A stretch of DNA of 32,000 nucleotides, taken from NCBI GenBank assembly GCA_030649345.1, contig JAUSKK010000054.1, forward strand, positions 1 through 32,000. Direction: 5' to 3'. Positions 8,541 to 30,855 of the stretch are shown here, piece by piece. This DNA comes from Candidatus Iainarchaeum sp. (GTDB lineage Archaea; Iainarchaeota; Iainarchaeia; Iainarchaeales; 0-14-0-20-34-12). Under the pieces are notes generated by a model. That model did not search any database and was not told where the DNA came from. It worked only from the letters and a program-made list of their open reading frames with translations. How positions within the stretch are numbered: the stretch's first letter is position 1; each line of letters begins with the position of its first letter. The position numbers were made by a program, and so were the translations under genes.

Positions 8541-8570
8541 GTATAATATGTTTAAACTTATTTAAATAGT
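8541..8570 (-). promoter_or_regulatory. Candidate mazEF promoter (TATA-like boxes)
   Basis: The minus strand reads ACTATTTAAATAAGTTTAAACATATTATAC, 18-47 nt upstream of ATG 8523. Assigned by position and A/T composition only. Confidence 0.3.
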
Positions 8571-8620
8571 TTTGCGTGTTATTGGAGTATCTGGATGTAC
8601 TCACTAGTTAAAAATTAAGA

Positions 8621-9472: not shown

Positions 9473-9533
9473 AAATAGAAATCCTTAGCTTTTTTAGTTG
9501 ACTAAGAATTTTTCTGCATTCCAGACAATTTCT
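9473..9533. repeat. Direct repeat copy B: the functional 3' end of giant 2 plus its hairpin
   Basis: Matches 8621-8680. It contains the last 13 codons (..TEIVWNAEKFLVN*) and the stop of giant 2. Confidence 0.8.
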
Positions 9534-12500: not shown

Positions 12501-15500
12501 TTGTCCTTGTAATCTTGTTCTAATTTAGTAACTTTTGCAACTGCTTCTGCACTTTCTGTAGCTGCTTTTACTTTTAATTTAGCAATATCTGCTAAACTGG
12601 TTGCAGTACAATCAAATCCGCTATTTTTATTTAATGCTTTATCTAAATCATCAATTTCTTTTGCAATTCCTGTTAATCCTGTGGGTGGTGTTACCGGTGT
12701 TGCAGTTGTACATTTCAATTGTTCTCTGGCTGTTCCAATAACTAAATTAATTGATTTTTTGTTTTCGTCTCCAGGATATTTTGTAAGCAATGCAGTTTCT
12801 TTTACTTTCAATTGATCGCAGTTAACTTTTCCTGCTATAATATCATCTGCTAATTGTTTGAGTTCAGTTTTTAATTCAGTATCAGTTACTTTTTCTGCTT
12901 CTGCTTTAGCTGCTGCTCCAGCCAATGTTTTTCCAATCTCTGCTGGTGTTCCTGTGGTTGTTGCACAGAATGTATCTAGTGTTCCTGCTTTTTCTTGAGC
13001 TTCCACTTGTTTGACTGTAACTCCTTTATTCAATACTTTGACTTTAACTGGCAATTGAAGAATATCTGAAGTTCCTGGATTGTTTTGTGTTCTGGTAATT
13101 CTAAATCTGGCAGGCGATCCTGATTCAGATAAATTAATGACTGCACAATTTTGTTTCATTGCACTTCGATCAATGGTTAACAATCCATTGTGTCCTTCGT
13201 CTGTGACTCCGAATTGCAATTTGACTCCAGAATCATCTGTATAGCTTCCGTCTCCTTCGAGTGTTAAAAAGTCTCCAGTTCCACATACTGGACCGTCAGC
13301 ACATTTTCCTCTTTGAGCTACATCTGCTCTATTGCGTGGAATTTTCATTAAATAATCTGTAACTTGGTCACTTCTCTTGAATGCATAAGCATCCGAGCCA
13401 TTAGTGAAATGTAATTTGTCATTTAACCATCCGTCTCTGGCTGTGACATCAAAGTAATCTTGCTTGGTGCTCGACGTTTTTGCTCGCAAACAAGCAGCTG
13501 GCTGGATGTCAATATCTCCGGCTTGCATGACTGTGTCAAATACTCCGAATGCTTGATAGGGATCTACAAATTGTACATCAAATAATTCTACTTGAGGTCC
13601 AGTTGGAGTAAAGTAAGGTACTGTAACTCTTCCTGGACTAATAATACTGTGACCAAATCTGCTTGCACTGATTCTTAAATTTCCAACTTGCTGGTTGACA
13701 GAACCTTCAGTGAATCCAGGGAATTGATCAATCACTTGAGGATTATAGTAGACTGAGAAATGCAATACTTCGCTTCTGGATTGTCCTGATCCGCCTTGAA
13801 TAACTGCAGGTGTTGTATTAATGTAACTGATTAAAGGACAAGCTCCTAAATTATACAAACCTCGGCCTGGAATCATTTGTTGTCCAGGTAAAAGTCCTTG
13901 CTGTTGCCCTTGGAATCCTTGTTGTTGGAATTGCTGCTGGGCTGGTACTGTAACTCCGCAAGATTGGTTAGGCATTCGTAACATGTCGGATGTTGCAACT
14001 GGATAACATTCAATGTTTTGTAATCCAAAGGTTGGATCTAGTTTGTATCCGAAGTCTACACAATTGTTGGTAATTTTTCCTGTACTGGCAATACTGGTTA
14101 CAAAGTCTACTTGGAAAGTACTAGGACTTAATACTGGCTTGCACATTTGTTCTACTTCGCCAGCTCGCATAACTGTAGCTTGTAATTCGCCTAAACCAAT
14201 AAAGCTAGTTTCTGCTCCTAAGATTCTTCCATTAATACTTACAGGATATCTTCCAGAAAATATTGTTGGACTAACTGTTACTTCTGCTTCTTGTTTAGGC
14301 TGCAATTCTATTCCTGGTTTTCCTACTCTTAATCGTGAATCTGGTTCAATTTTTAATTCTACGGAAACTTCACAATTATTTCGTATCAAAAATTTTCCTT
14401 GACTGACTGGATTATTGGGGTCAGTGCAGGAAAAAGAATTTCCAAACAATGGACTTTGCATTCCATAGCCTTGTTGAGATCTGTAAGGTGAATCAAATAC
14501 ACTGGTTGGTCTATTGTATAAAGTATTTTGGTATTGATCGTATGGACTGTAATTGGCGCTGCCATAAATGGGTTGTCCTGTTTGTGTAGGTTGCGTTCCT
14601 ACTGTTCCTGCATATCTTCCGAAGTTGGTTGGATATTGTCCTTGGGGGATTCCTTGTCCACCGTACAATCCGCTAAATCTTGGGTCTGTCATTCCTTGAT
14701 TGAATCCAAAAGAATTCTGCATTATTCCAGAACCTAAATCATAACCACAAGTATACAATTGCAAGGGTTGTCGTTCAATGATTTCTACACATTGACTTAA
14801 TTGACTGACAATGGCGTCTGTTTCTAATTTGGCTGTTAATGTTTCTGGCCCAGCTAAAGTTTGATGGCTTCCGGAGATAATTAAAGTAGGCTTGGCTTTC
14901 GCACTTTTAATTTTTTTGTCTGGAATAAAAGTAAATCGTACAGTTCCTTCTTTGCTTTCTGGAAATACTTGTGCTAATTTTTGTTCTTGTTCATTTAAGG
15001 CTACTGCTCCTTTGTCTTTGAATAATTCGCTTTCAATTCTCATTTCACCTAAAGGTTGTGCTGTTTTCCAGTCAATTTTGGCTGAAATATTTTGCAAAGA
15101 AATTGGAATTCCTTCCACTGTACAAGAATTTTTGATTTTAACATCAATGCTTTCTTGAGCTGTTTCGGTTGCAAACTTCCAAGTACTTGGAGTAAATGTT
15201 AAACAGTCTGCTAAATCTACTTCGTTTCCTAAAAGGATTCTGAATTTTAATGGAATTCGTGCAGTCCAAGTTTTTCCTACTGTGCTATTTGTAATTTGGA
15301 AAGCTAACATTCCATCGATTGTTTGAGTTTCTGTAACCAATTTTCCTTTCTCCGTTAATTCAAATAAAATACTGGCATTACTGTCATGGTTTACATCTAA
15401 TTTGAGTCCTTCAATTTCTTTCAAGTTTTTAGCTTGAACCAATTCAGTGCTTTTAGAATCTAAAGTAACTTTGCTGATGGTTAAAGGCAAAGGAGTAATA

Positions 15501-18500
15501 TTCACTAAAATAATTTCCAAAGATTTGCTAGAACCTGATCCTGGAGTTAAATCCAATTTAAGTTCCAGGGGTTTGACTGCAACCAAAGTTTCATCGATTT
15601 TGATTTCTAAATTATTGGCTTTGAATGAATTCTTTTTAACTTCAATTTTCAAAATTGAATCTACATTGGGTGATTCTAGTTTGAATGCAAATATTCCTTC
15701 AGAATTGGTTGTGCCTTGAGCTACAATTGGATTAATGCTGGCAATAACTTCTGCATTGGCTATAGGCTGGCCTGTTATATCTGTGACTTTAACTACAATT
15801 GGATTGTCTACAAATGGAATGATTGCAATGGGCAATACTTCAATTTTAAGTTCTGCTGCAGGCAATACTTCTATTCCCAATGCATGCGTAAATGTTTTTT
15901 GCTGTCCGCTGACCAAACTTAATTCTAAAGGATTGAATCCTTCTTTGGTTGCTTCAAAATCTAAAGTTCCAGTAATTTGTCCGTCTTTTTCTAAGCTTCC
16001 GATTTCTAAATTGAGTTCAGATCCATTTCCTGTTCCTGTAACTTTTCTTCCTTGAGCATCTGTAATATTGTATCCTTTCAATACAATTCCTGCAGTTTCA
16101 TTTACAATTTGAAGTTGTGCATTGGCCAACAATCCTGTGGTTGTTTTGGTTAAAGTAAAATGCAGTCTATAATTTCCAGTAATGCCTGCACTGTAGGAAT
16201 CAATGACATTGCTTTTCAGTCTGGTTGAAACATTTTCTATTTGTAAAATTTTACAAAATCCTTGAGAACATAAATTACTAGGCCCGACAGTATATACTTG
16301 AACTTTGGCTTCAGCATACAAGTTTTGTTTTTGTCCGGTATTTTCTTCAGTTCCTAAACTATCATCTCTTGGATCTCTTGTGTAAGTATTTCCTTTGATT
16401 CCATAGCCTCTGTACAATACTTGGACTACGTCTCCTTGGACTGCTTCGGGTTGAACCAAGATTTCTGCTTGAACTTCAAATACTCCAAAAGCAGGCAATC
16501 CATTTCTGTTAATTGTCCATTCTACATTAGCCCATTTACTATCTCCTGTAGTTAATTTTGAATAATCTGTAGCAGTATTATTATTGGGAGTATAAGTTGT
16601 TCCTTTTTTGATTACGCCTATGCTTAATACTTCTCGGATCAAAGAATTGTCTTCATCCAATGCTGTGGTTGTTCCTTCTTGTTCTCTTCCAGTTCGCAGG
16701 TGTACTCCTACAGTATCTAAATTGCTTCCTTGGGGTGCCAATACTTGTACTGTTGCTAAATATTTTCTGCCTGCACTGACACTATTTTGAATTGTTTCTC
16801 CTTCTAATTCTAAATTTTTTAATTTTACAGTTAATCCAGAAACATCTTTTTCCAATTCAATCAAGCGTGCTTGTAAATTAGCAACAGCTGCATTCATTGG
16901 GACTGTAACATAGGGTAAAAATTCGTCGGCTTCAATTACAAAAAATACTTGTTTGTCGGCTCGAACTTGTGCAGTGACTTTTCCGTCAATATTGGAAGTT
17001 AATTCCTGCAATGTTCTATTGGTTCCTTTTTCCAATACTTTAACCAAAGCACCTTGAACTGCTTGTTGTTCTGCATCCAATAAACTTAATTCAATGGCTG
17101 TAGTTCCAATGGTTAAGCTGACAGAAACTTCTTTAATTTCGCGTTCTCTTACTGTAAATTCTGTACTGGCTTTTCCTTCAAATCCTTGTTTTAAAACAAA
17201 AACATAATAATCGCCTGGAACAATATTCGTAAATTCAACTCGTCCATCTGTTCCAGTAGTCAATTGTGCTCCGATGGGTGTATCTTGAGAATCTTTTAAT
17301 CGAATTTTTGCATTCTCTACTGGCTGTTGGTGTTCATCTACAACACTTACGACCAAAGCTTGAGCATTGACTACACTGACTGCTTGCAATGAAATAGAAT
17401 ATTCTTGTGCTTGTGCTCTAACATTATTTTGGGTTGCAATATTGTATCCTGCTTTATCCACTTCCAAAGAATACGTTGTACTGGCTGGAACATTTAACAC
17501 AACTTGTCCAGCTGTATTCGTATAAGCTTCATACGGTTGTGATGCTCCAGTTTTTAATTTAACCAAAGCTCCAGCAATAACTGTTTGAGTTGTGCTGTCC
17601 ATTACTTTGACTTTAATTTCTCCTAAAGTAGTTGTTTGTAATACTGCAGTAAATGAAATACTTGTTTCAGCTCTCAATACTCTGGGTTCGCTGGTATAAT
17701 CTTCGTATAATCCGTTTCCGGAAACTACAATATAATATTCGCCTGCATTAATTTCTGTAAAATTTACTGCTCCAGATTCAGAGGTTACTTCAGATGTTTC
17801 AATTAAGTCATCGCGATCTGAACTGGTTCCATTGGTATTCATTAATTGTACGCGTACTTCAGAAACAGTATTGCCTGTAGAATCTTCTGCTTGAACTGTT
17901 ACACTTCCTTTCAATACTTCATCTTGTGCTAAAAAGATTTGAGGCAATGCTTGTTCTAAACTAACTTGTTGTCCGGAAACATTGAATCCAGTAATATTGT
18001 CGACCAATAAAGATCCGCAGTTGCTGGGAATATTTTGTACATTGGCCAAGCCATCTTCGACTGTAACAGTAGAAGTATAAGCTGCACTTGCATTGGCACA
18101 ACTAAAAGTTGCAGTTACACTGGTACTTAATACTGCACTGCCTTGCATAAATTGAACTGTTTTGTTGAGTAAAGTAATTTCTTTTCTTAATCGAATGGTT
18201 TGAGTGTCTGCTTGAGTTAAAGCTGAATAGTTTTGGGTTTGTGAAACAAATCCTTCTTTAGAAACAGTTACTGAAAAATCTTTTTGCAATGGAACTTTTA
18301 ATTCAAGAATTCCTTCTTCATTGGTGTTTGTAGTGGTTGTTTGTTCTCCGACTGTTAAAGTAATTTCTGCATTTCCTAAGGCTGTTCCTTCTTCAGAATA
18401 AACACTTAAACTTAAAGCTGTCTGGCTAGGCACCAAGACCATGAACAAGCCGGCTAGAATTAAAACAAGTAAAAGAACTGCAATTGGAAAACTTGGAATA

Positions 18501-18628
18501 TTTCTGTTTTCAAAAATATCTGCCACTTTGTAGACTGGAATTTTGTGACTATCTAACCAATCCAAAAAACCATAGTATTTATCTTCGAGTTTAGTATACG
18601 ATGATTTCAATGAATTGCCCAGTCCCAT
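9494..18628 (-). CDS. Giant membrane-anchored surface protein, paralog 2 (3044 aa)
   Basis: Uninterrupted ORF in the track, with GGTG 5 nt upstream of the ATG. N-terminus: KLEDKYYGFLDWLDSHKIPVYKV...IPSFP plus TM (FPIAVLLLVLILAGLFMVLV, about nt 18431-18490). At least 5 carboxypeptidase-regulatory-like beta-sandwich repeats follow, e.g. LVVSVVDEHQQPVENAKIRLKDSQDTPIGAQLTTGTDGRVEFTNIVPGDYYVFVLKQGFEG. It also has Q/G/Y/P low-complexity tracts and a long helical region punctuated by single Cys residues. Confidence 0.92.
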   Translation of the reverse strand: MGLGNSLKSSYTKLEDKYYGFLDWLDSHKIPVYKVADIFENRNIPSFPIAVLLLVLILAGLFMVLVPSQTALSLSVYSEEGTALGNAEITLTVGEQTTTTNTNEEGILELKVPLQKDFSVTVSKEGFVSQTQNYSALTQADTQTIRLRKEITLLNKTVQFMQGSAVLSTSVTATFSCANASAAYTSTVTVEDGLANVQNIPSNCGSLLVDNITGFNVSGQQVSLEQALPQIFLAQDEVLKGSVTVQAEDSTGNTVSEVRVQLMNTNGTSSDRDDLIETSEVTSESGAVNFTEINAGEYYIVVSGNGLYEDYTSEPRVLRAETSISFTAVLQTTTLGEIKVKVMDSTTQTVIAGALVKLKTGASQPYEAYTNTAGQVVLNVPASTTYSLEVDKAGYNIATQNNVRAQAQEYSISLQAVSVVNAQALVVSVVDEHQQPVENAKIRLKDSQDTPIGAQLTTGTDGRVEFTNIVPGDYYVFVLKQGFEGKASTEFTVREREIKEVSVSLTIGTTAIELSLLDAEQQAVQGALVKVLEKGTNRTLQELTSNIDGKVTAQVRADKQVFFVIEADEFLPYVTVPMNAAVANLQARLIELEKDVSGLTVKLKNLELEGETIQNSVSAGRKYLATVQVLAPQGSNLDTVGVHLRTGREQEGTTTALDEDNSLIREVLSIGVIKKGTTYTPNNNTATDYSKLTTGDSKWANVEWTINRNGLPAFGVFEVQAEILVQPEAVQGDVVQVLYRGYGIKGNTYTRDPRDDSLGTEENTGQKQNLYAEAKVQVYTVGPSNLCSQGFCKILQIENVSTRLKSNVIDSYSAGITGNYRLHFTLTKTTTGLLANAQLQIVNETAGIVLKGYNITDAQGRKVTGTGNGSELNLEIGSLEKDGQITGTLDFEATKEGFNPLELSLVSGQQKTFTHALGIEVLPAAELKIEVLPIAIIPFVDNPIVVKVTDITGQPIANAEVIASINPIVAQGTTNSEGIFAFKLESPNVDSILKIEVKKNSFKANNLEIKIDETLVAVKPLELKLDLTPGSGSSKSLEIILVNITPLPLTISKVTLDSKSTELVQAKNLKEIEGLKLDVNHDSNASILFELTEKGKLVTETQTIDGMLAFQITNSTVGKTWTARIPLKFRILLGNEVDLADCLTFTPSTWKFATETAQESIDVKIKNSCTVEGIPISLQNISAKIDWKTAQPLGEMRIESELFKDKGAVALNEQEQKLAQVFPESKEGTVRFTFIPDKKIKSAKAKPTLIISGSHQTLAGPETLTAKLETDAIVSQLSQCVEIIERQPLQLYTCGYDLGSGIMQNSFGFNQGMTDPRFSGLYGGQGIPQGQYPTNFGRYAGTVGTQPTQTGQPIYGSANYSPYDQYQNTLYNRPTSVFDSPYRSQQGYGMQSPLFGNSFSCTDPNNPVSQGKFLIRNNCEVSVELKIEPDSRLRVGKPGIELQPKQEAEVTVSPTIFSGRYPVSINGRILGAETSFIGLGELQATVMRAGEVEQMCKPVLSPSTFQVDFVTSIASTGKITNNCVDFGYKLDPTFGLQNIECYPVATSDMLRMPNQSCGVTVPAQQQFQQQGFQGQQQGLLPGQQMIPGRGLYNLGACPLISYINTTPAVIQGGSGQSRSEVLHFSVYYNPQVIDQFPGFTEGSVNQQVGNLRISASRFGHSIISPGRVTVPYFTPTGPQVELFDVQFVDPYQAFGVFDTVMQAGDIDIQPAACLRAKTSSTKQDYFDVTARDGWLNDKLHFTNGSDAYAFKRSDQVTDYLMKIPRNRADVAQRGKCADGPVCGTGDFLTLEGDGSYTDDSGVKLQFGVTDEGHNGLLTIDRSAMKQNCAVINLSESGSPARFRITRTQNNPGTSDILQLPVKVKVLNKGVTVKQVEAQEKAGTLDTFCATTTGTPAEIGKTLAGAAAKAEAEKVTDTELKTELKQLADDIIAGKVNCDQLKVKETALLTKYPGDENKKSINLVIGTAREQLKCTTATPVTPPTGLTGIAKEIDDLDKALNKNSGFDCTATSLADIAKLKVKAATESAEAVAKVTKLEQDYKDKCTDPYQWLLNTGKAKGFPANYKTVLDALRTAVNPTVCKPDPNTEKVQLMNQVALASSDAADKATNSTVFGAKADELIDQGKKACAEKAAADARALAAAPVLNKIKIANPTLYAKLKSLTETAHTVCPFTGTTFAEQKADLDKLLAEIDAIDASLWNPTEKQIMKEAMKKIFVEKCPPEAANTEALVDARTQKMKTAGFPDALADRWNALMKKLLSDDCTGYTKTGVQAEIDAFIRDYTTEFNRLVPNWETDYQKAIDFETTHALSIPKLEKANLEFFNSEKEKRCNATAAAKADRSAFYCSVGDIALAKAADAPVTGTDAVTKYGLDKLLFTWAEADFTAETCENKFCDATQFTLSMTKKVKDLQEKAVKVVQARLAAADSVNFKEVCTQVQPIELHSLTKKTITLKDEENKAQAFYVKGASLLKAGFKQGRTETTCNGNDLIATLTGVSATDTGTQISTLKTNLTNVSTRVQECYDMQDSVPIVLVFEGTTLTNTDSPVLNTIKTSVAELQSASAPTGLQNKYLMTYEEYSQLVSGLLDVLQKTGTNAGTCNNGTIDQCQSTISGLTIQGTTNEWITALNALNNSLEEVLPTYKVLPSNSAQINALLIEQADNYTTSDLPSGVDLKPFKAYLIGDGQETSANFTGHFDSTYPGNNVNSDWTFKQVKLEGTILTSDDEVSAKKMSPGKNSGLYTVQLDEIVAVNITNWTVTPAGPTVKFGLAQTLAEMDTANTTEYAKNLLFSLPFDGELGMTGTDTREGYGVSIEEGFKLTLDGANPLAKTLGTGSTLALKQTGYKQLFEDVKNGKLLTLTKQANAVDLLFSPSTVSGIKLLNTTSKANTVYLTLTESATTSHLPGALPSDKLVGFKTDKDQKNTITELVKDFTRESARTTCANIVKENAAQVTIASGTASVIGVVYVPKESNARNLLVLCSEQSIQLQSNLTTTPTISGTSGGAVSLLTNPYSAGLKQMVEDIQTEKLCMNTTDTATEIVWNAEKFLVN

Positions 18629-18762: not shown

Positions 18763-20184
18763 TTATGGCCTGTTTTCGCAAGTAAATGGTCCACTAGGCG
18801 CTCCGTTTGTTTGACAATTCCAGTGTGTATTTGGAGTAAATCCTTGAGGCAAAATATCCAATGGATTACTTCTCATTTCTATTTTGTATTCTGTATCCAA
18901 TAATTTATTCACTTTGTATAAATCATTTTCTTCTTTGATTCCAACTTGTACTCTTAAAATATTAATTCCTGCGCATTGTGCACTTCCAGTTCTATTGTTT
19001 CCATAATAATTTTCTGCAGTTGGAGTATTGGATACTTCGGGAGTAATTTTTATTCCAACTTTGCTTACGCCTACTGTACATTCTCCTGTGCTAGCATCCA
19101 ATGCAATTCCAAAATCATTTCCTACTCCTTCAATTGGAATATTTTTGGTTTGAATTTGTGCTTGTACTTTTTGACAAGTTTGAAATTCAGTGTATTCATG
19201 CAAGGCATTGTTGGCAGAATTTTCTGCACTGAATTGAAATTGAATTGGATTGCCGCGAACACTGGGTCCAAAAGTAACTCCTGCATTGGGTGCTCCAGCT
19301 GAACTTTCTCCAATACAGGCATTGTTTCCAAGATTTTGTTGTGAAACTATTGCAGAATATTTATCGCACGTATTTGGAATGCAGGCTCCCAAAGCCCAAG
19401 TGTCTAGTTCTCCTCCAGTTCCAGAAAAGTTTTCATTCATGACTCCGCTATTGCCTTGTGGATCTGCAATTGCTCGAGCATACGTTAATGCTTTAAATAT
19501 TCTTAACGGAACATATATTCTGACATCATTGTCCGGCAAAATGGGATCTTTTAATATTCGTCCAGTGCTTTTGTCTTCCACTACAATTTTCGGCAAATTT
19601 TCTCGGTCTGTTGGAGTTAATGAAGATAATTTTAAGTTTACATAAAATGTTCCAGTCGGGCATTCGGTATCTTTATCTTCTCCTAATTTTCCAGTGCATT
19701 CAATGACTTCAAAAAATTTATTTTGTTGATCAATGGGCAAGGTTGGATCCGGCAAACTGTTTTGTACAATGGTTCTCATGGAGTTTCTGAATCCTTCAAT
19801 GTTTTCTGCTTTAATGGAATAGGTTGAAAACGAAAAACCAAATCCTTGATATAATGCAATTAAGAAATTTGCAGCAGTATCTGCAAAAGCTGTTCTTCCT
19901 GTAGTGGTTCCAAAAGTTCCGTTGGCAAAATCATTCACCAATAAATCCCAGTTATCCCAGTTGGTTACAGTGAATACATTGTTGGGGTCAGATAAATATT
20001 CATGCATTTGTTTGCGGATTCCGAAATTAAAAATTTGAATAGCGTCAGCTCTTGTTAATTCAGCTACACTTTCCAGTCTGGATTGTTCTTGGATGTCTGC
20101 AATAATATTCTGCGTATTGTTTTCGGTTTGAATCATGGTATTGACTAAGACTGCAGTTAATACAATTAAAATCATGCCTACCAA
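18763..20184 (-). CDS. Secreted/anchored Cys-rich protein with a type IV pilin-like N-terminal hydrophobic segment (true start probably upstream at 20217, see findings)
   Basis: 473-aa ORF in the track, TTG start. After the N-terminal helix (VGMILIVLTAVLV) comes a polar helix NIIADIQEQSRLESVAELTRADAIQIF, then a region of about 400 aa with 14 Cys residues, mostly falling into short-spaced pairs (CTGKLGEDKDTEC, CIPNTC, CQTNGAPSGPFTC). The in-frame codons between the TAA at 20220-20218 and the TTG read I-N-S-K-A-F-N-L-F-T-A. Confidence 0.8.
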   Translation of the reverse strand: MVGMILIVLTAVLVNTMIQTENNTQNIIADIQEQSRLESVAELTRADAIQIFNFGIRKQMHEYLSDPNNVFTVTNWDNWDLLVNDFANGTFGTTTGRTAFADTAANFLIALYQGFGFSFSTYSIKAENIEGFRNSMRTIVQNSLPDPTLPIDQQNKFFEVIECTGKLGEDKDTECPTGTFYVNLKLSSLTPTDRENLPKIVVEDKSTGRILKDPILPDNDVRIYVPLRIFKALTYARAIADPQGNSGVMNENFSGTGGELDTWALGACIPNTCDKYSAIVSQQNLGNNACIGESSAGAPNAGVTFGPSVRGNPIQFQFSAENSANNALHEYTEFQTCQKVQAQIQTKNIPIEGVGNDFGIALDASTGECTVGVSKVGIKITPEVSNTPTAENYYGNNRTGSAQCAGINILRVQVGIKEENDLYKVNKLLDTEYKIEMRSNPLDILPQGFTPNTHWNCQTNGAPSGPFTCENRP

Positions 20185-20226
20185 TGCAGTGAATAGATTA
20201 AATGCTTTCGAGTTTATTTAAAAAAA

Positions 20227-21293: not shown

Positions 21294-24200
21294 TTAGTTT
21301 TTGCACTTGACTTTTGTTGTTGATAATCCTGAAATGCCCAGTGCTTTAATTTGGACTTCAGCTCTGTTCTGGATGCAGAATTTTGAAAATTTTTCGTATT
21401 GTTGTTTAACCAGTGAAACAAATTCTTTTTCAGTTCCAATTGCTTTATGCAAGTACCTTGCAGAGATTCCATTATAGTCTCCTGTGGATGTTCCATTATA
21501 GTAATTCTTTAATGCTGTTTCGAAATTGGGTGAATTAATTCCACTGGAGTCTGTGTAAGGTTGATCCAAGGCTTTCCAATCATTCAGTCTTTTTGCAATG
21601 CATTTAATGTTTTCTTCAGCATTGTTGACGCTAACTGCATCATGGGTGTCACATAATCCGATGTAGTCTGCAATTAAGTCTACTCCTGTTAATTGTTTGT
21701 TGTCTCCTTGAGCAAATCCAATTCTGGTTGTTACATTCATTACTGCAAATATCAATGCATCATCTACGTTTGCTTTTCCTTCTGTTGCTTTGGCTATTTC
21801 GCTTTTGTATTTTTGGTATCCTACAAATTCAAATACATCGGTGCCTTGGTTTTCACTTGGAGCAGGCACTCGTAAATTTCCAATGACTGGTTTTTCACTT
21901 AAATAACTGGCATCGCATTTGGCTTTGATTTCATTCTTTTCTGGAATGTCTGCAGGTCTTTCTGGTTTATTGCATAAATTTTGAATAATATACTTTCTAT
22001 CTCCTGCTTTTCCAACAGAAATATCAACGCGGTGTGCACAATTGTTTTTGAGTATTTGTCCAAAAGGTATAGGAATAACATCTGCTTTTCCGTCTCCGTC
22101 AATGTCGGAAATATCTTTTCCGCTAAAGTCTTGAGTTCCTATTCCGGCTGTCAAATTTCGTTTAAATAAGTCATCCCATGCTAAATTTCCTGCTCCGTTG
22201 GCTAAGCCTGCACACAGTATTCCTTTTCCCAATCCTTTAGCTCCTTCCCAAGTAAACATATTTCGAATAACTGAACCCAATCTAGCCAATCTTCCTCGGC
22301 TGAAGCTTACTGTTTCTCCTTCAATTCCTTCTTTGATAATTGCTTTGAATTCTTCAGAATCTTTTAATAATTGTTTGGCTGCTTCTCCTTCGCGTTGAGC
22401 TGGATTAGCTAATTCGCTGTAATTGATTTCTGCAGTTCCAATTTTTACTTTAGCTCTTCCAGTAGTAGCTGCATTTTCTAATAAAATATTTCCTGGACTT
22501 TCAGGAGCTAAATTTAATGCTCTTTTGGTGGCTTGTTCTATTTGCACTGCATCTAATTTGAAATGAATTTTTCGAGCAACTTCGTTGGGTCTAGTTTCTG
22601 TGACTGTTCCAAAATTGTGATAAATTTCGTTGACTGTTTCTTTGCTTCCAACTTCTTGCAATACTTCTTTGACTAATTTTTGGTTTTCACTTTTTTCTAC
22701 TAATTCTTCCAATAAATTGGTTCCAAATGTTTGCTCCATTCTGGTTTGTACATTGGTTGCATGAATATTGTCAAGAATGGCATTAATGACTCTTGTTCTT
22801 CCAGGTGCTCCAGTTCCAATGGATCGTGTGTCTGTAATGGTTAATTTTCCTGGAATTTCGTCATAAATTGCTTTCAATTCATCTACACTGGCTTGTTCTA
22901 ATTTTTCTGTTAAATGAGAACTTTCTTTAGCTAGTCTTTCAATGGTTTCAGTTAATTGTTCTTTGGTAAAACGTTTTTCTAATTCTTTGACTACTTCTTT
23001 GGTTCCAACTTGAGTTGTTCTAGACGTTGATCCTTTTTCAATAACATCTCCGACTGTTAGATTTCCTGGATTTAATGTTAATACTCCAGGTGTAGCTAAT
23101 TCTGCTTCAATGTTTGCAATAAATGCTGTTTTGGTTACATCATCTATGCGTCCAGCTAAATTTCCGGATTCTTCTACACTGCTCCAGATACTTTCTGCAA
23201 TTCTGTGACGAATGGATGTTAATTCTGTTTGCACTGTTGGATTGCCCATTTGTGCTGCAATAGCTGCGGCATCTCCGCTGGCTAATAATTCTCCAATAGC
23301 TGGTGTTACCTCTAAAGCAATTCCTTTTTCTCCAATGCTTTTCGCTGCAGCTTCAGCTGCAGTTAATGCTTGAGTTCGAATTCCTTTTCTGGCATCGATT
23401 ACTGCATCTTCTACTTTTTGTAATTCTTCAGCATATCCTGCTCCAGGTGCTCGGTATCTTGGAGCTAAAGCAGCATTGCTTGCTCCAATTTCTTGATACA
23501 ATGTTCTGAATCTTTGAGCCAATGCTGGATCTGCTTTGGCATGCGTTAATGCAGCATCAAATTCTGTTTGCAATAATTGTGCTGTTACTATTGTTTTGGC
23601 TCTTTGCAATGCTGTAATTCGTTCTTGAATACTGTGTTCTAAAATGGCATGCAATTCATTTCGAATTAAACCCCAATTTACAGGCCTGGGGATGGGTGCT
23701 GCTCCATACAATCTGTTTCCAATAGCTTCAATTGAATTGTTAGTCATTAATTGGGTTACTTCAGCTACTTGTCCTGCGGTTAAAATTTTTCCACTGACTT
23801 GCAAGTATTCTCCAATAAATGCTCCAATTGTTACACTGGTTAATGCTTGTTCTAATCTTCCGCCAATTATGCCAGTGTCATTATTGTTGGCTGCATCAAT
23901 GACTGCTTGTCTGGGATCAGGCGTAGGCAAATTTTGGTAAGCTGTAATGTCTTGACTTAAATTATAAGGCGGTAAAACATAGTCTCCTAAATTTTTCAAA
24001 GTTTGAGAATAATCCACTCCCGGCATATTGAATAAAGCAGAGCCTGCTGTAATTCCGCAATCTCCGGCAACACTTAAAGCCAATCCGCCTAAACCTATTC
24101 CTCCACGGAATGAAATTGCATTGCAGGCTATAGATACGGCTGCACAGGTTCCAGTGTATCCTGCTAAAGCCCATTTTTTGGCTGTTCGAACTTCTTGATA

Positions 24201-27200
24201 ATATTCGGGTTGTCCAGCCAATGTTGCACTCGTAGATCCAAAGAATACGTCAGCTTGTTTTCTTTTTTCTGGATCATTTAATCCTTCTTCTTGTCTTCTG
24301 GCAACTACTTCGAGTAAAATATCATCTACACTTAATTCATCTGGGCCAGTCCAAGCTACATTCGGAATATAGTACGAGCCTACATCTAATTTGATTAATC
24401 TGGAAACCAAATCATACGGGCTTAGTCCACAGCTTTCTAATTTAATTAAAGCTTCATTGCTTTCTCTTGTTACTTTGTCTTTGGCTCTAGCTTTAACTTT
24501 CAATTGAGTGCTTAATGCATTTTTGATTTGAGTTACATCTCCTACTGCACATAATTTTACTGCAAAAGAATAATTGGTCAAATTTTTTGGATCTTGTTTT
24601 AATTGAATTACTGTTCCTTCAATTTTATTAGTTGGATCATCGGAGTATTCTTGAATAATTTCATCTTTTTTAATATCATTTAATCCAGGAATTCCTGTTT
24701 GTTCTTCGTTAGCTAATAAATAAACCGGTGTTTTTGCATTTGCTCGAATGACTTTTGTAATGTCTGCAAATCCTGCTGTGCTAATTTTTCCATTTTTGGC
24801 ATCTTCTACTAATTGAGCCCAATTGGTTTGCAGAATAATTCGTTCTCCAATGGTGCTGGATACATTCATATCCAAACAAGTTTCTGTAGAATACAAAGCC
24901 AAAGCTGCTTTAGGATCAGGCTGGCTGGGATTAACTTGAGGTCTGGCTGAAGTTGGCAAGTCTCTTAGTACTAATTCTGTTTTGTCTGCATTCATGCATC
25001 CATTGCCTTCCAATCCTCCTTTGGCTAAACTATCTATTCCTTTTCCAATTTCTGTGCCTAATTGTTTTTGGAATTCTGGATTGCTGGAAACATAAATGTC
25101 ATTAATAATGGCATCAATTTTGACTGGTTTTACATTGCCTTCAGCGTCTGTGACTTTTTCCATTTTTAATTTGATTACTCCAGAGCCTTCGACTGGCCCA
25201 ACTGTTAAATTCAAGTAATTATTGTTTCCGCTTTTTCCTGTTCTGCCTTCATTTTTTCCAAACAAGCTTTTTGCTAAACTACTTTTTAATTCTTCAAATT
25301 GTTTGGCATCTGTATTCGCTGGAGTGTCTCCTGCAACTGTTCCCAAAAAAGTATTGCTTCTTGTATTCAAAGTTAAGTCTTCGTCTTTGGGTAAAAAATT
25401 CATTACATTTTGTATTTGTTCAGTACATTCTGCAGTAATTTTTCGTTCATCTTGTAATTGGAAAGAAAATACCAATCCTTCGTCGCTGAATTTTCCGCCT
25501 ATATTTTGTACAGCTCCATCCAAGCTAATTCTGTATCTTCCACAGCCTGCTAAAATTCTAGGAACTCGAATTTGGTGGACTGAAAAACTGGAAGTAATTA
25601 ATTCTGCACTTTCTTCTATGGTGTTGACTGCATATCCTTTGATTTCTTTGAACTTGGTGCTGTCATCTAATATTTTTTTGACCAATTCACTGGTAACTAC
25701 ATCGTTTTGCAAGTATACTTCTAGGAAAGGAACACTAATTCCAAGAGAACTGAATGAACAAAATGTTTGGGTTGGATCACAACTTCCTGCATTGCGTGCA
25801 TCATAGCTTATTTCTCTTAATCTTCTGCGTACATCTCCTGCCAATCTGTTTATTTTTCCCAAAACATGCTGAGTCATTTGTTTGGCGTCACAATAATGAG
25901 CTGAACAATCGGCTTCATTTTGGGTTGCAATATCCGGCAATTTAATGCTTACTGTTGTTTTTTCGTCTCCGCAAATTGGCATTTCAAAACTAGCTGTAGC
26001 TTTTCCTTCTTCGCTTAATTCTTTTCCCAATAAAATAGTAGCCAATAACTTGTTGGATTTACTGAATTGCTGGCTGCGTACTAAAAATCCTTTGACACTA
26101 ATGGCTTCAGGTCTTTGTCCTGGACTAACATAGTCTGATTTTTTTCCTAAAGTTAATTTGTATTCTTGGCTTTCTCCTGGATTCAATACAGTACTTGCGC
26201 CTTCAAGTTTGAGTTCATTTTGTCCGAATAAAGTTCGGTCTAAAGTTAATTCTCTAACTTCTTCTGCACAATTGTTTTGGATTCTAATTTTTTTCTCCAA
26301 TACTCCGGCTGAACTAACTTCACTTTGGAATCGTAAAGGTTCTACTTCAAATACTTTCAGGCATTCTCCGCCGGAAATATAAACTTGTAAATCTACTGCA
26401 GTTAATTCAATTCTTCGGCCATTCACTGAACCCCAAATAATAATTCGTGCAGGAATTGTTTTTCCTTCCAAGGCTTTGGTAGCTGCAGTGCTTAAGTAAA
26501 TTGTTTTCGGAGGATTCAATTGTTGTCCTGGCATTAACATTCCTTGCCATAAACTTTTTTGGCTTCCGAAATAAGTAAAATTATTAGAGCCAAGCTGACT
26601 GAATGAATTGTTTGGATTTCCAAATTGGGTTTGTCCAAATCCTTGATTGTATCCTAAATTATATCCGCCAGTTGGACTGGAATTAAATCCTCCAAAGCCA
26701 GGCTGTTGGCTGAGTGCATACATTGGATTTTGCAAAGGATTATTGGGCACACCGTATTGGGGTGTATCGTAGGGCAATACTTCTGGTCTTTGATACAATG
26801 TTTGATTGTCATAACTTGGCTGTGTTCCTTGTGTTGATTGATATCCTGTAGCAAACAAGGCATTGCCTCCAGATTCTACTGGCAAAATATCAATGTCTAA
26901 ACTACCTGAAAATCCAGGTGCTAAAACTGTAGTGAATTGCAATGCATTGATTGGGAATTCTCCCACGTTTTTAATATACAAAGGCAAGTATCCTGTGGCT
27001 CTTTCTTGTAAATTTCCAGTAGTTTGGTTTTCTCCTTTGGCTAAAAATACTTGTCCATTATTTCCTGCAATAGCCTGCAATCCAAATTGCGGTGGAACTA
27101 CTCGGACAAATAAAGGAATACTGGCAGTCATTTGCGGAGAATTGAAAAATATTCTATACGGGTATTGTAAAATTCCTTGTCTTGGAATCCGGTTGGATAA

Positions 27201-30200
27201 ACTTAAGCTAATGCTTTTTTCTTCTCCAATTTGTAAACTCAAAGAAGGAGCTGTAATGGTTAATTGCTGGTCTTGTTCCAATCCTTCAATTCGGGTTGAA
27301 AAACTTAAAGCTTGCGAGCATTCATTTCGTACAATAATGTCTACTCTTGCACTGGTATTATCTAAGCCTAACAAGAAAGCTTGAGCTTGCGGTGTATTAA
27401 ACACCAAACAATCTTGGGGTAATTCTTTATTGTAATTTACTGTTACTCTTGTTCTGATTTCCACTGGGAAAACATCTTCAACTGTACCGCGAACAATTAC
27501 TTCAGCTTCGCCGTGCAGTCTTTCTTCTGGATTGGTTCCTTTAAATCGTGCATTCAAATTTAGTGAACCTGTTTCATTTTCGCTTAAAGCGCTTTGAATT
27601 TGTGCTTCAAGTACTAAATTTTCCGGCCAAAATTCAGATTCTTGTACTTCTACAGTTAAAGATTTAATTTTGAACGAACTTTTGTTTTGAATATTGATTC
27701 GTTTGCTTTCGGTTTTTTTATTGGGCTGTAAATCAAACAAAGTAGTTTCCTGTAAAGTTAAAACATCTGTTTTTCCAATGAAAATAGATTGTTCGATTTT
27801 TCTATAATTGGGTGCAGTAACTTCTACAATTAATACTCCAGCTGGCAGTCCTGCAGGAAAACCATATTCTCCGTTTCTTCCTTTTTTACCAGCATTATTT
27901 CCAATGACACTTCGTAAAGATTTTTTCTTTCCATCCAATATGCGTACAGTTGCATTGCTTACAAATTCACTGCTTTCTGAATCTTTGACTTGAATGGTAA
28001 ACGGCTGTCCAATCACAATTTTTTCAGGAACAATTTTGAGGTCCATTTCTTTTTCAGAATATACTGTAAAAAAGTGTGTTTTTTCTGTTTCTGTTTCTCC
28101 AACTTTGACTTTGATTTGCAGGAAAGTATTTTCTGCTTTTTTGGTTCTAAATGTTATGCGAATCTTTTTTTCTTCTCCTTGAGTTAATTGCAGTAAATCA
28201 ATGCGGTCTTCTACATCCAAAGAATCTTCCTGTGAAAATACATTGCTGAGTTGTCCAATTTGTCTTCCATTCAATCCAATTTTGGGGTTTTGTTTATCTG
28301 TGCTTACCGTAATAATAGGCCGGGCATTTTGGGTTGCTTTTAATGTTAATTCCAATGCATAAGTTCGATTCGTTAAAGGATTGAATTCATGTTCTAAAAA
28401 TTTGTTGCCTTGATCGTCTACAAATATGCTGGAAAAACAAACAGTGTTTACACATTCGGGTGTATCTTCAAATAATGGAATGGCTGCAAGTTTAGCTTCT
28501 GCATACAATGCACTTCTATGTTCATTCGAATTAGCTGTTTCCAAAACTGAGTCTAAAGGTTCTCTGAAAAATTCTCCATTGAGTGTACTCCAAGCTCTGT
28601 ATCTGACTGTAATCTCATTTTCTTGCAATGTTTCTCTGGCTCGAATTTTTAATCGTACAATTTCGACTGTATTGGGTTTGTCAAAATATAAATCCAGCCA
28701 TTTATTGTATGAATTTGCAGTTCCTTTATTGCTGCGGTCCAATCCTTCATTGCCGGGTTCAGGTGTAGCCATATAGGTTCTGCCATATGCAAAATTGCTG
28801 GCTGTGGAATCAAATCCTAAAATTCCTGAACTTTGAGAGTCTGCGAATTTTACAGAATCATCTCCGATTCTAAAATGAGCCCCTGAAGACAATTGAGTTG
28901 GACTAAATTCTAATTTGAATTTTAGCCAATAAAATTTTTCTTTCGAAATTCCTTCAACTATTTTTCCATGCTCGTCTTCAATTCCAATGAATTCAATTTT
29001 TGGGCTTAATCCTGCAGTGCTTTTGGATAAAGTAATATCTGCAGTTTTTCTTCCATTCATTTGAATTTCTTGAGAAAAAGTATTTCCATCCAAAAAAGTT
29101 GCCTGCAGTATAAAGTTTTCTTTGCCCAATCCATCAAAACTAACTTGGCCTAAATTACTAGGCCCAGTGTATAAAACTGTTCCATCTTTGGCTGTGATAA
29201 CCAAATTTCCGTCAATGATTTGTCCTGTTTCGTCTTTTAAATTTAAAGTAACCAAAGTCAAAGGCTTAATTAATTGAATTTTGATTTCATTTCTTTTTCC
29301 AGACTCAATACTTGTACTTCCTGTTCCTGCTTCAAAGTCTTTTCTGGCTTTGGCTTTAATTTGAGTATTCAATCGCACAGTAGCTTGCTGATATCCTGTT
29401 AAGTCTGTAACACTCGAAGGATAACCTGCAGGCCATTCTTTTCCATCTATAATTTCCAATAATTCAATGGTTGCATTATTGGCTGGTCTAAGCAATGAAT
29501 CCAATACAAAAATATTCAATAAAGTAGAATTTCGGCTATGCACTGGTTCTAAGTTTAAATTTACAGTTGGCTGATCTACTGGTTTGATTGTTTTATGTTC
29601 TGGTAAATATCCTGCTTTAAATCCTGTGACAATATATTCTGTGTTTTGATCCAAGCCTCGGAATTCTATTGTGCCAGATAAATCAGTTGTTTTTTCTTCC
29701 AGTAAAGTATTTTCCAATGAATAAATTTTTACAATTCCATCACTTAAAGGAACACTGCCTTGATCCAATAAATGTACTTCAATACTTTCTCCGCCTTGTT
29801 CTAAAAATGCTTCTACAATTTCTTGTTCTTGTCTTAATGTTCTGGCTGAAATTTCTGTACTAATGTATCCTAATTTTTCGACTGTAATTCGTACACTGGT
29901 TCCAGTATCCAATAATTCAGTATAACTTCCATCTTCGTCTTGGACTTCAGAAATTAAATCATTGGTTAAACCGTCAAAAATTTTTATTTTAACTGCAGTT
30001 AATTGCTGCTGTGTTTGTTTGTCTTTGGCTACAATTAATAATTGGGTTTTTCCTTGAAATGAAATAATGCTGGGCTTTAATTCAAATAAAGTAATTTGTT
30101 CGCTGTCAAATACAAATGGATCACTGCTTTGTTCATAGCCATTGGCTCGGGTAATTAAAAATCCCTGCAAGCCTACTGGAATTCCAGTAAATGAAAATAC

Positions 30201-30791
30201 ATTATCTGTTCCTAGAATTCCGTCAATTGTTTTTTCTGCAACTACAAACTGGGCTTGCACTTCACTGACTGGTAAACCGGATTCAGAGTCTACAAATTTA
30301 ATTTTTCCATCTACATAGCTTAAAATTTTATTCAAAGTTAAACGCAATGAAAGTTGTTCTGATTCTAAAACAATTTCTTGTTCTGTGCTTTCATATCCTT
30401 CTTTGCTGGCCCGCACTAAAAGTGTACTGCCAATTTTGAGTCCTTCCAAGGAAAGCGTTTGATTGGCGGAAACAATTTCTCGCTTGATTGAATTACCGGC
30501 TGCGTCCAAAATTTCTAAAGTGACTCCGCTAAGAGATTGATCAAAATTATCTTGTAAGCGTAAAGAAATTTCTGGATTAATGGATGTTCCCAAAGGAGAC
30601 AAAGAAAATACAGCAACAAAAATTAAAATAATTAAAGCCAAAGTTACAGGCAAACTCGGCAAGCCTTTGCTTTCCCAAAAATTATTGTATACATGAACTG
30701 GAATGCCGCGTGAATCCAAAGCTTCCAGCAAAGCATACCATTTGTCTTCAATGCCTGCATAAATTCTGCCTAAAATGTCAGAGATTCCCAT
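21294..30791 (-). CDS. Giant membrane-anchored surface protein, paralog 3 (about 3165 aa)
   Basis: Uninterrupted ORF in the track. I prefer ATG 30791 (MGISDILGRIYAGIEDKWYALLEALDSRGIPVHV...LPSLP plus TM TLALIILIFVAVFSL) to the track's GTG 30800, because giant 2 also starts MG... It has 6-7 beta-sandwich repeats, e.g. IEVHLLDQGSVPLSDGIVKIYSLENTLLEEKTTDLSGTIEFRGLDQNTEYIVTGFKAGYLP. It also has a Q/N/G/Y/F low-complexity tract, a Gly/Ala-rich hydrophobic hairpin, a long helical region and an SLT-like C-terminus. Confidence 0.92.
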   Translation of the reverse strand: MGISDILGRIYAGIEDKWYALLEALDSRGIPVHVYNNFWESKGLPSLPVTLALIILIFVAVFSLSPLGTSINPEISLRLQDNFDQSLSGVTLEILDAAGNSIKREIVSANQTLSLEGLKIGSTLLVRASKEGYESTEQEIVLESEQLSLRLTLNKILSYVDGKIKFVDSESGLPVSEVQAQFVVAEKTIDGILGTDNVFSFTGIPVGLQGFLITRANGYEQSSDPFVFDSEQITLFELKPSIISFQGKTQLLIVAKDKQTQQQLTAVKIKIFDGLTNDLISEVQDEDGSYTELLDTGTSVRITVEKLGYISTEISARTLRQEQEIVEAFLEQGGESIEVHLLDQGSVPLSDGIVKIYSLENTLLEEKTTDLSGTIEFRGLDQNTEYIVTGFKAGYLPEHKTIKPVDQPTVNLNLEPVHSRNSTLLNIFVLDSLLRPANNATIELLEIIDGKEWPAGYPSSVTDLTGYQQATVRLNTQIKAKARKDFEAGTGSTSIESGKRNEIKIQLIKPLTLVTLNLKDETGQIIDGNLVITAKDGTVLYTGPSNLGQVSFDGLGKENFILQATFLDGNTFSQEIQMNGRKTADITLSKSTAGLSPKIEFIGIEDEHGKIVEGISKEKFYWLKFKLEFSPTQLSSGAHFRIGDDSVKFADSQSSGILGFDSTASNFAYGRTYMATPEPGNEGLDRSNKGTANSYNKWLDLYFDKPNTVEIVRLKIRARETLQENEITVRYRAWSTLNGEFFREPLDSVLETANSNEHRSALYAEAKLAAIPLFEDTPECVNTVCFSSIFVDDQGNKFLEHEFNPLTNRTYALELTLKATQNARPIITVSTDKQNPKIGLNGRQIGQLSNVFSQEDSLDVEDRIDLLQLTQGEEKKIRITFRTKKAENTFLQIKVKVGETETEKTHFFTVYSEKEMDLKIVPEKIVIGQPFTIQVKDSESSEFVSNATVRILDGKKKSLRSVIGNNAGKKGRNGEYGFPAGLPAGVLIVEVTAPNYRKIEQSIFIGKTDVLTLQETTLFDLQPNKKTESKRINIQNKSSFKIKSLTVEVQESEFWPENLVLEAQIQSALSENETGSLNLNARFKGTNPEERLHGEAEVIVRGTVEDVFPVEIRTRVTVNYNKELPQDCLVFNTPQAQAFLLGLDNTSARVDIIVRNECSQALSFSTRIEGLEQDQQLTITAPSLSLQIGEEKSISLSLSNRIPRQGILQYPYRIFFNSPQMTASIPLFVRVVPPQFGLQAIAGNNGQVFLAKGENQTTGNLQERATGYLPLYIKNVGEFPINALQFTTVLAPGFSGSLDIDILPVESGGNALFATGYQSTQGTQPSYDNQTLYQRPEVLPYDTPQYGVPNNPLQNPMYALSQQPGFGGFNSSPTGGYNLGYNQGFGQTQFGNPNNSFSQLGSNNFTYFGSQKSLWQGMLMPGQQLNPPKTIYLSTAATKALEGKTIPARIIIWGSVNGRRIELTAVDLQVYISGGECLKVFEVEPLRFQSEVSSAGVLEKKIRIQNNCAEEVRELTLDRTLFGQNELKLEGASTVLNPGESQEYKLTLGKKSDYVSPGQRPEAISVKGFLVRSQQFSKSNKLLATILLGKELSEEGKATASFEMPICGDEKTTVSIKLPDIATQNEADCSAHYCDAKQMTQHVLGKINRLAGDVRRRLREISYDARNAGSCDPTQTFCSFSSLGISVPFLEVYLQNDVVTSELVKKILDDSTKFKEIKGYAVNTIEESAELITSSFSVHQIRVPRILAGCGRYRISLDGAVQNIGGKFSDEGLVFSFQLQDERKITAECTEQIQNVMNFLPKDEDLTLNTRSNTFLGTVAGDTPANTDAKQFEELKSSLAKSLFGKNEGRTGKSGNNNYLNLTVGPVEGSGVIKLKMEKVTDAEGNVKPVKIDAIINDIYVSSNPEFQKQLGTEIGKGIDSLAKGGLEGNGCMNADKTELVLRDLPTSARPQVNPSQPDPKAALALYSTETCLDMNVSSTIGERIILQTNWAQLVEDAKNGKISTAGFADITKVIRANAKTPVYLLANEEQTGIPGLNDIKKDEIIQEYSDDPTNKIEGTVIQLKQDPKNLTNYSFAVKLCAVGDVTQIKNALSTQLKVKARAKDKVTRESNEALIKLESCGLSPYDLVSRLIKLDVGSYYIPNVAWTGPDELSVDDILLEVVARRQEEGLNDPEKRKQADVFFGSTSATLAGQPEYYQEVRTAKKWALAGYTGTCAAVSIACNAISFRGGIGLGGLALSVAGDCGITAGSALFNMPGVDYSQTLKNLGDYVLPPYNLSQDITAYQNLPTPDPRQAVIDAANNNDTGIIGGRLEQALTSVTIGAFIGEYLQVSGKILTAGQVAEVTQLMTNNSIEAIGNRLYGAAPIPRPVNWGLIRNELHAILEHSIQERITALQRAKTIVTAQLLQTEFDAALTHAKADPALAQRFRTLYQEIGASNAALAPRYRAPGAGYAEELQKVEDAVIDARKGIRTQALTAAEAAAKSIGEKGIALEVTPAIGELLASGDAAAIAAQMGNPTVQTELTSIRHRIAESIWSSVEESGNLAGRIDDVTKTAFIANIEAELATPGVLTLNPGNLTVGDVIEKGSTSRTTQVGTKEVVKELEKRFTKEQLTETIERLAKESSHLTEKLEQASVDELKAIYDEIPGKLTITDTRSIGTGAPGRTRVINAILDNIHATNVQTRMEQTFGTNLLEELVEKSENQKLVKEVLQEVGSKETVNEIYHNFGTVTETRPNEVARKIHFKLDAVQIEQATKRALNLAPESPGNILLENAATTGRAKVKIGTAEINYSELANPAQREGEAAKQLLKDSEEFKAIIKEGIEGETVSFSRGRLARLGSVIRNMFTWEGAKGLGKGILCAGLANGAGNLAWDDLFKRNLTAGIGTQDFSGKDISDIDGDGKADVIPIPFGQILKNNCAHRVDISVGKAGDRKYIIQNLCNKPERPADIPEKNEIKAKCDASYLSEKPVIGNLRVPAPSENQGTDVFEFVGYQKYKSEIAKATEGKANVDDALIFAVMNVTTRIGFAQGDNKQLTGVDLIADYIGLCDTHDAVSVNNAEENIKCIAKRLNDWKALDQPYTDSSGINSPNFETALKNYYNGTSTGDYNGISARYLHKAIGTEKEFVSLVKQQYEKFSKFCIQNRAEVQIKALGISGLSTTKVKCKN

Positions 30792-30855
30792 ACAGTTCAC
30801 ATTTCACTAAGTATAATTAATTAAACCTAATTCCCTTAATTAATCTAATGTTTAG

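Follow-up and report, generated by a model that had tools for sequence, protein, structure and literature searches.

The distal tail of a giant Iainarchaeota surface protein: a conserved plan and a modular end domain

Giant 3, its orthologs and the plan of its tail

The window analysed here is a stretch of 32,000 nucleotides from Candidatus Iainarchaeum sp. (NCBI GenBank assembly GCA_030649345.1, contig JAUSKK010000054.1, positions 1 to 32,000 of the forward strand), in which three very long open reading frames (ORFs) lie on the minus strand, at 1..7140 (running off the left end), 9494..18628 (3,044 amino acids, aa) and 21294..30800. We refer to them as giants 1, 2 and 3, and our subject is the C-terminal ~960 aa of giant 3 (residues 2200–3168; features in Table 1), the true start of which is likely the ATG at 30791 (MGISD...). 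All three giants have in common an N-terminal motif (..YxKLEDKWYGFLDxLDxxxIPVYKV..) and one strongly hydrophobic helix, and the only Pfam domains found in them are CarboxypepD_reg, SdrD_B and macroglobulin-type immunoglobulin (Ig)-like domains, all in the N-terminal halves. The overall picture suggested by these features is of a very long extracellular protein that would be anchored at its N-terminus. The tail of giant 3 is not shared with the two paralogous giants of the window.

Table 1. Coordinates of giant 3, of the elements of its tail and of the adjacent genes (positions in the window; residues numbered along giant 3).
Feature	Position	Strand	Remarks
Giant 3 ORF	21294..30800	(-)	3,168 aa; belongs to a giant surface-protein family conserved in Iainarchaeota
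N-terminal signal-anchor transmembrane helix, residues 49–68	30597..30656	(-)	After conserved EDKWY..L..LD...IPV; Kyte-Doolittle 2.65, Hessa free energy (dG) -1.5 kcal/mol
Small-residue hydrophobic helical hairpin, residues 2210–2257	24030..24173	(-)	C2219 (arm 1) and D2247-C2248 (arm 2) invariant
Variable Cys-free multi-helix spacer, residues 2258–2852	22245..24029	(-)	Ala/Glu/Lys/Leu/Gln-rich; longest in giant 3 among orthologs
Second Gly-rich hydrophobic helix (GAKGLG...NLAW), residues 2853–2875	22176..22244	(-)	Family motif GxGCGxLANxVG; N2868 and G2871 invariant
DxDxDG calcium-loop-like insertion, DISDIDGDGKADV, residues 2896–2908	22077..22115	(-)	Shared by L028 only
Small beta unit, residues ~2916–2945	21966..22055	(-)	Corresponds to family motif KGxTYKV...GK
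End domain of the clade A type, residues 2975–3168	21297..21878	(-)	Mostly alpha-helical; conserved Cys (GLCD, IKCIA)
Helix pair matching MltC, residues ~2991–3026	21723..21830	(-)	T3024 (nt 21729–21731) on the catalytic Glu
Pilin-like ~470-aa gene	18763..20217	(-)	Directly after the giant-3-type gene in orthologous loci
BRO-N/DinD-like gene	20311–21174	(-)	In-frame TAA at 20785–20787, giving 129-aa and 157-aa ORFs

Orthologs were sought with two baits, an alignment of the N-termini of the three giants for genomes (one per species) and the conserved mid-region for metagenomes. A total of 26 loci came up in the scan with the N-termini, and nearly all of them belong to metagenome-assembled genomes (MAGs) of ‘Candidatus Iainarchaeum’, Iainarchaeota or unclassified archaea, including AR10. 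According to tblastn, nine of these loci each contain one giant ORF that is colinear with giant 3, from residue ~10 to residues 2170–2270 and at 27–31% identity, while the mid-region scan of metagenomes yielded 11 more loci, which brings the colinear orthologs to ~20, distributed over Iainarchaeota MAGs and metagenomes. On this distribution alone, the organism behind the window is very probably an Iainarchaeote, i.e., a DPANN archaeon. This family of ~20 members is without annotation and is deep enough for structure prediction based on a multiple sequence alignment. Giant 3 itself shows the markers of the giant-3-type family throughout: the EDKWY..LD..IPV motif with its transmembrane helix, the colinear body with GYCDA and WxGxPD, the C...DC hairpin, GxGCGxLANxVG and KGxTYKV. 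Two contigs from MAGs labelled Chloroflexi/Chloroflexota (L017 and L019) carry the same archaeal giant genes and are probably mis-binned Iainarchaeota. As the closest ortholog is only 31% identical to giant 3, and as neither giant 3 nor the MazF-like toxin encoded at 7925–8260 has an exact-sequence match in a collection of ~15 billion proteins, the source lineage appears to be poorly sampled.

Beyond the body, the orthologs share one order of elements: WxGxPD and a linker, a Cys-containing hydrophobic hairpin, a variable helical spacer, a Gly-rich helix, a beta unit and an end domain. A first-pass annotation, made from the letters of the window and its ORFs, had put the hydrophobic stretch ~2200 residues past the anchor, and the distal position of the module on a giant anchored by its N-terminus (residues 49–68) is supported; all the strings that it quoted (the hairpin, the second Gly patch, the DxDxDG loop, the strings called SLT-like at residues 3015–3121 and the anchor) are in place, while its interpretation of them holds in part. 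Column conservation falls from 0.4–0.57 in the body to 0.19–0.35 in the tail, which is the pattern expected for an exposed interaction surface, and the tails of the orthologs measure between 590 and 920 aa. The tail encoded on one metagenome contig (L028), the closest relative, has clear homology to the final ~270 residues of giant 3 (BLASTP E 4e-12 over 268 aa) and shares with it the DIDGDGK loop and the ..YYNG.. string.

When searched directly, residues 2200–3168 gave no significant match in Pfam (also as six sub-pieces, E ≤ 10), NCBIfam, PHROGs or the PDB sequences, no match in a word-indexed search of 5.8 billion protein clusters or in an exhaustive phmmer search of 1.84 billion protein representatives, and no tblastn match in phage genomes. 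No SLT, lysozyme or tape-measure family came up at any threshold in these direct searches of the tail. Genome and metagenome scans for related loci with the tail as query returned nothing, as did a homology search with residues 1–1100 of giant 3 and a search of viral contigs with the mid-region alignment (residues 1600–2262). Finally, profiles of the whole tail, of the mid-region and of 18 tails found no match in the PDB; in a further search with the 18-tail profile, the only matches were two fragments of the clade B type described below.

The end domain and the lytic transglycosylase question

The end domain is the modular part of the tail, as seen from a comparison of 18 complete tails. One of them (L011) closes with a genuine Pfam Glucosaminidase domain (glycoside hydrolase family 73, GH73; PF01832; E 1.8e-8, 35.5 bits against a cut-off of 30.2), which lies at L011:8500–8913 (+) behind a Pro/Thr/Ala linker and has the catalytic motif KAESQYG; it is the single enzyme domain found among the 18. 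The other end domains are without annotation and form two types, clade A (giant 3, L028, L001, L002, L005/L027, L010 and L030–L032) and clade B (L003, L004, L006, L009, L033, L034, L036 and L037). Moreover, the giant of L029 (2–4534 (+)) ends right past the KxxxYK beta unit, without any end domain, and the pilin-like gene follows ~45 nt on. The GH73 of L011 stands at the same terminal position as the end domain of giant 3, which has no catalytic acid, as detailed below.

A profile of the nine clade A end domains, compared with 177,635 PDB sequences, has the E. coli lytic transglycosylase MltC as its top three matches (E 0.056, 0.15 and 0.33). The match is local (29–35 residues) and corresponds to the helices that lead to the catalytic Glu, onto which the profile alignment places T3024, the first Thr of ..NVTT.. 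in giant 3; the first-pass annotation had put the same Thr at the catalytic position. Using hhalign, clade A against an alignment of five SLT sequences gave P = 6.6e-4 and 27% probability, with signal in the same helices only (in controls, the reversed query scored 8.6, and one of 80 block-shuffled queries reached the observed 28.9). Against 60 E. coli proteins taken singly, MltC ranked first, with a score of 33.9 vs. 16.9 for the next and a probability of 47%, or 54% when giant 3 and L028 were left out of the clade A profile. The E. coli sequences used in the lytic-enzyme comparison were MltC, Slt70, MltD, EmtA, MltF and FlgJ; of these, EmtA and FlgJ were aligned at the right place with noise-level scores. 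The profile of clade B end domains found nothing lysozyme-like in the PDB.

At the catalytic position, the nine clade A sequences read T, A, R, D, S, S, Q, Q and D, with Thr in giant 3 and Ala in L028. The aligned residue is never Glu; two sequences have Asp there, and five of the nine carry a Glu two residues downstream (P-E or F-E), where giant 3 has Arg and L028 has Gly. Judging from the alignments, the end domain of giant 3 is without a catalytic acid.

The first-pass annotation had aligned the last ~160 aa by eye to the whole SLT pattern (PF01464). Its first element, the ..VDDALIFAVMNVTT helix, is supported by the profile, whereas GLCD and YYNG, proposed as SLT motifs II (GLMQ) and III (AYNxG), were rejected because they are not conserved as such in the family: GLCD corresponds to a conserved Cys column (xCGIP), and YYNG is restricted to giant 3 and L028. 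The Cys of GLCD probably pairs with that of IKCIA. Overall, giant 3 resembles SLT lytic transglycosylases (PF01464; MltC, PDB 4cfo, 4c5f, 9vi7) over two helices (Y..i..As..YgVDE.LllAi...), in domain size and in helical composition, and differs from them in having Thr for Glu, in not conserving GLMQ and AYNxG and in the lack of a match at the level of hidden Markov models (HMMs). As for GH73 (PF01832; FlgJ and AcmA type), the L011 domain is alike down to the ES catalytic motif, whereas comparison of this domain with the end of giant 3 gave nothing significant. As far as sequence comparison reaches, the resemblance to the beginning of an SLT-type domain appears real but is short and local, homology over the whole domain is unproven, and the relation between the end domain of giant 3 and the GH73 of L011 may be either domain replacement or very deep divergence.

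Hydrophobic elements, spacer and gene neighbourhood

The hydrophobic hairpin keeps its position in the 11 orthologs that were aligned, all of which have the Cys of arm 1 and the Asp-Cys of arm 2 (usually DCxxP). In giant 3, it is the second most hydrophobic 19-residue window (Kyte-Doolittle maximum 1.35), and in nearly every ortholog it is the most hydrophobic stretch besides the N-terminal anchor; both arms of giant 3 contain small-xxx-small motifs, and arm 2 is short in most orthologs, the Asp being always present. Its Hessa dG amounts to +4.4 kcal/mol in giant 3 and to +1.7 to +4.3 in the orthologs, vs. -1.4 to -6.3 for the anchors. The stretch that the first-pass annotation read as part of a penetration module is a conserved element; it falls short of a membrane anchor in hydrophobicity and contains an invariant Asp. 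The data exclude a plain second membrane anchor. A cytoplasmic C-terminus, reached by a single crossing at residues 2210–2257, was likewise rejected: the conserved Cys of the end domain, and the peptidoglycan hydrolase that takes its place in L011, argue for a C-terminus outside the cell, in which case the hairpin would cross the membrane either zero or two times. The hairpin may be a buried, disulfide-stapled packing element, or it may insert conditionally, in the manner of colicins or translocators.

Subthreshold Pfam matches to translocator families of the type III secretion system (T3SS) occur in three tails (SctB2 0.0076, IpaB/EvcA 0.043, SseC 1.7; all below the curated cut-offs), namely in L003, in L009 and at residues ~2605–2646 of giant 3. 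Though recurrent, they are probably noise from Ala-rich helical composition. Giant 1 has Gly-rich hydrophobic stretches of its own (GGMLVGGLLGGFGVGGGVAIAGGIIAGG.., ~2461–2709 (-), residues ~1478–1560; also residues ~1905–1960; Hessa dG +2.4), which may be analogous to the hairpin of giant 3.

The region past the hairpin had been described as a long helix, a description that did not hold: residues 2258–2860 contain three heptad-like stretches of 30–40 aa each, their longest runs free of Pro and Gly measure 47 and 50 aa, and neither internal repeats nor a continuous coiled coil were found in them. The second Gly patch fared better, since two of its residues are invariant in the family. So did the calcium-loop-like DxDxDG motif, which is observed once where 0.03 occurrences are expected and recurs in L028; its region gives a subthreshold Pfam match to FG-GAP.

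At least 15 loci have a giant-3-type gene and, ~5–50 nt behind it, a gene of ~470 aa whose hydrophobic N-terminus is pilin-like; a giant-2-type gene comes next. By this conserved order, the tail module belongs to a conserved multi-gene surface apparatus. The order was seen in L001, L002, L005, L010, L011, L027, L029–L033, L036 and L037, often with a giant-1-type gene nearby. The window keeps the order giant 3, pilin-like gene, giant 2 (9494–30800), but a BRO-N/DinD-like gene intervenes between the first two; as orthologous loci have only ~5–50 nt at this site, the BRO-N/DinD-like gene looks like a mobile insertion that is now broken. The interval between giants 1 and 2 contains two toxin-antitoxin pairs, a MazF/PemK toxin with a MazE/AbrB antitoxin (7925–8604 (-)) and a ribbon-helix-helix protein with a DUF3368 (PIN-like) protein (8760–9456 (+)). 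Giants 2 and 3 each have a Q/N/G/Y/P-rich low-complexity linker midway (residues ~1339–1410 of giant 2; residues 1310–1425 of giant 3, at 26526–26873 (-)), the sole stretch over which BLASTP can align the two proteins.

Readings of the tail

Tentatively, we favour the view that residues ~2200–3168 form a distal tip for contact or binding, whose end domain is catalytically dead and possibly derived from a lytic transglycosylase (LT). One N-terminal helix would anchor giant 3 in the archaeon's own membrane, and ~2,100 residues of Ig-like and Cys-rich domains would hold the tip outward. The hydrophobic helical hairpin would probably be disulfide-stapled, and the end domain most likely descends from, or mimics, the N-terminal portion of a lysozyme-like (SLT-type) fold; having lost the catalytic acid, it would bind rather than cut the glycan wall polymer of a partner cell. 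The two hydrophobic elements would be either packing cores or conditionally exposed membrane-interacting helices. The architecture, its conservation, the modular end domain, the missing Glu and the GH73 of one ortholog are observed; the extracellular placement of the tip, its binding function and any contact with a partner cell are inferred.

Proteins of this general kind have been reported before, which is a precedent for the favoured reading. Castelle et al. 2021 (PMC8204110) report that DPANN archaea encode proteins as long as 3,000 aa that contain murein lytic transglycosylase domains; they propose that such proteins adhere to the walls of bacteria or degrade them, and they credit earlier sightings of DPANN LT-domain giants to Rinke 2013 and Castelle 2015. 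Moreover, bacteria are killed by secreted peptidoglycan hydrolases of archaea, PF01832 among them (PMC12352652). The DPANN LT-domain giants (fam00969) resemble giant 3 in their size of ~3,000 aa, their DPANN host, their predicted extracellular location and the theme of a wall-directed lysozyme superfamily, seen as GH73 in L011 and as a faint LT-like helix pair in giant 3. By description, they are set apart from it: fam00969 comes from Woesearchaeota and Pacearchaeota and has a recognisable SLT domain, whereas giant 3 belongs to Iainarchaeota, has no Pfam SLT and misses the Glu; the extras of its tail (hairpin, Gly-rich helix and beta unit) are not mentioned for fam00969 in the available text of that paper. 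The giant 3 family is the same kind of protein as the DPANN LT-domain giants, in a different phylum and with a wall-targeting end that is swappable and, in giant 3, degenerate.

Among other ultra-small symbionts and predators, SPEARE of Nanohaloarchaeota is a very large, mostly extracellular surface protein with adhesion-type repeats. The giant proteins of Omnitrophota have occasional SLT domains, for which the envelope of a host or prey cell is the proposed target (bioRxiv 10.1101/2023.11.21.568195). Both are similar to giant 3 in size, extracellular placement and adhesion-type repeats, while domain content and topology, as far as these descriptions extend, differ, and no homology was detected.

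Several results weigh against a binding tip with an LT-derived end. The resemblance to MltC spans 29–35 columns only, and a clade A profile without giant 3 and L028 finds MltC in the PDB at E 0.08–0.14, tied with unrelated matches such as nanobodies and DctP. Pfam SLT (PF01464) has no match at E ≤ 10 in the pieces of giant 3, in the nine clade A end domains or in 17 further ortholog tails, and an HMM derived from E. coli SLT sequences detects no tail. Comparisons by hhalign of clade A with clade B, and of either clade with the GH73 domain of L011, were not significant. AlphaFold single-sequence models (mean pLDDT, the predicted local distance difference test score, 34.6 for residues 2840–3168 and 46.3 for residues 2975–3168, the latter mostly helical with two short terminal strands) are too poor to assign a fold, and the Foldseek matches of both models are meaningless (E > 1, TM (template modelling) scores of ~0.1–0.2). 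Regarding function, the analysis gave no sign of a partner cell or of binding, and a housekeeping envelope structure would account just as well for the conserved synteny with a pilin-like gene and two other giants.

The latter reading, though rather unlikely in our estimation, is the best of the alternatives. The giants would then be structural, S-layer-like proteins of the archaeon's own envelope, in which the hairpin and the Gly-rich helix lie buried as the cores through which a canopy oligomerises, the tail varies for being weakly constrained, and no partner cell is involved. A phylum-wide gene order, with giant-3-type, pilin-like and giant-2-type genes together in at least 15 loci, is what core envelope genes would show, and the invariant Cys and Asp-Cys of the hairpin suggest a folded, disulfide-stapled element over a free anchor; the helix-packing small-xxx-small motifs of both arms and the 17 of 18 tails without an enzyme domain agree with it. 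However, the peptidoglycan hydrolase at the tip of L011 has no substrate in an archaeal envelope, and a modular or losable end domain, as well as the LT-like local match, sit badly with a purely structural role.

More doubtful is an active envelope-breaching device comparable to phage tape-measure proteins or T5 Pb2, as the first-pass annotation had proposed, in which the hairpin would insert into the membrane of a partner, the helical region would serve as a conduit and the end domain would open the wall. In its favour, the hairpin is conserved as the second most hydrophobic segment in nearly every ortholog, and its moderate hydrophobicity might allow it to pass through the cell's own secretion without integrating, as is the case for secreted pore formers. 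The GH73 at the tip of L011 (KAESQYG) is catalytically plausible; the T3SS translocator matches in three tails would also fit, but they lie at composition-noise level. Against it, arm 2 contains an invariant Asp and is short in most orthologs, and the dG of the hairpin lies between +1.7 and +4.4 kcal/mol; no acid is present in the end domain of giant 3, where Thr replaces the Glu and Arg follows two residues later, or in that of L028, and L029 has no end domain at all. The relation to tape-measure proteins and T5 Pb2 also failed on sequence, with no homology in PHROGs or in phage genomes by tblastn, no HExxH/HxH metallopeptidase motif and no long coiled coil. What giant 3 has in common with them is the design logic alone, i.e., hydrophobic segments, a helical region and a wall-targeting end on a long protein, whereas they are virion components and giant 3 is predicted to be cellular and membrane-anchored.

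A related proposal, which we regard as improbable to the same degree, is that the tip is an undescribed archaeal device for breaching other cells, in which the stapled hairpin and the Gly-zipper helix would insert into the membrane of a partner while swappable ends (GH73, an LT-derived pseudo-enzyme and others) recognise or open its wall. If true, cells would have their own equivalent of phage tape-measure proteins or T3SS translocators, and bacterial partners would be implied for Iainarchaeota. Finally, it is very improbable that the tail is a C-terminal effector of the polymorphic-toxin type, which would be cleaved at the conserved DC motif and then released or delivered: conservation does drop sharply just past the invariant DCxxP and tails do vary between 590 and 920 aa, but they keep one common plan instead of swapping unrelated cassettes, no toxin or immunity family was detected in them, and the downstream gene is the conserved pilin-like one instead of an immunity gene.

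DPANN archaea recognise other cells, attach to them and make use of them, and the literature searched identifies no host for Iainarchaeota. Under the reading that we favour, namely a distal contact or binding tip, the end of giant 3 would be a concrete candidate for a contact apparatus in this lineage. Moreover, the real peptidoglycan hydrolase found as the end domain in one lineage hints that some members of the family may deal with bacteria rather than with archaea.

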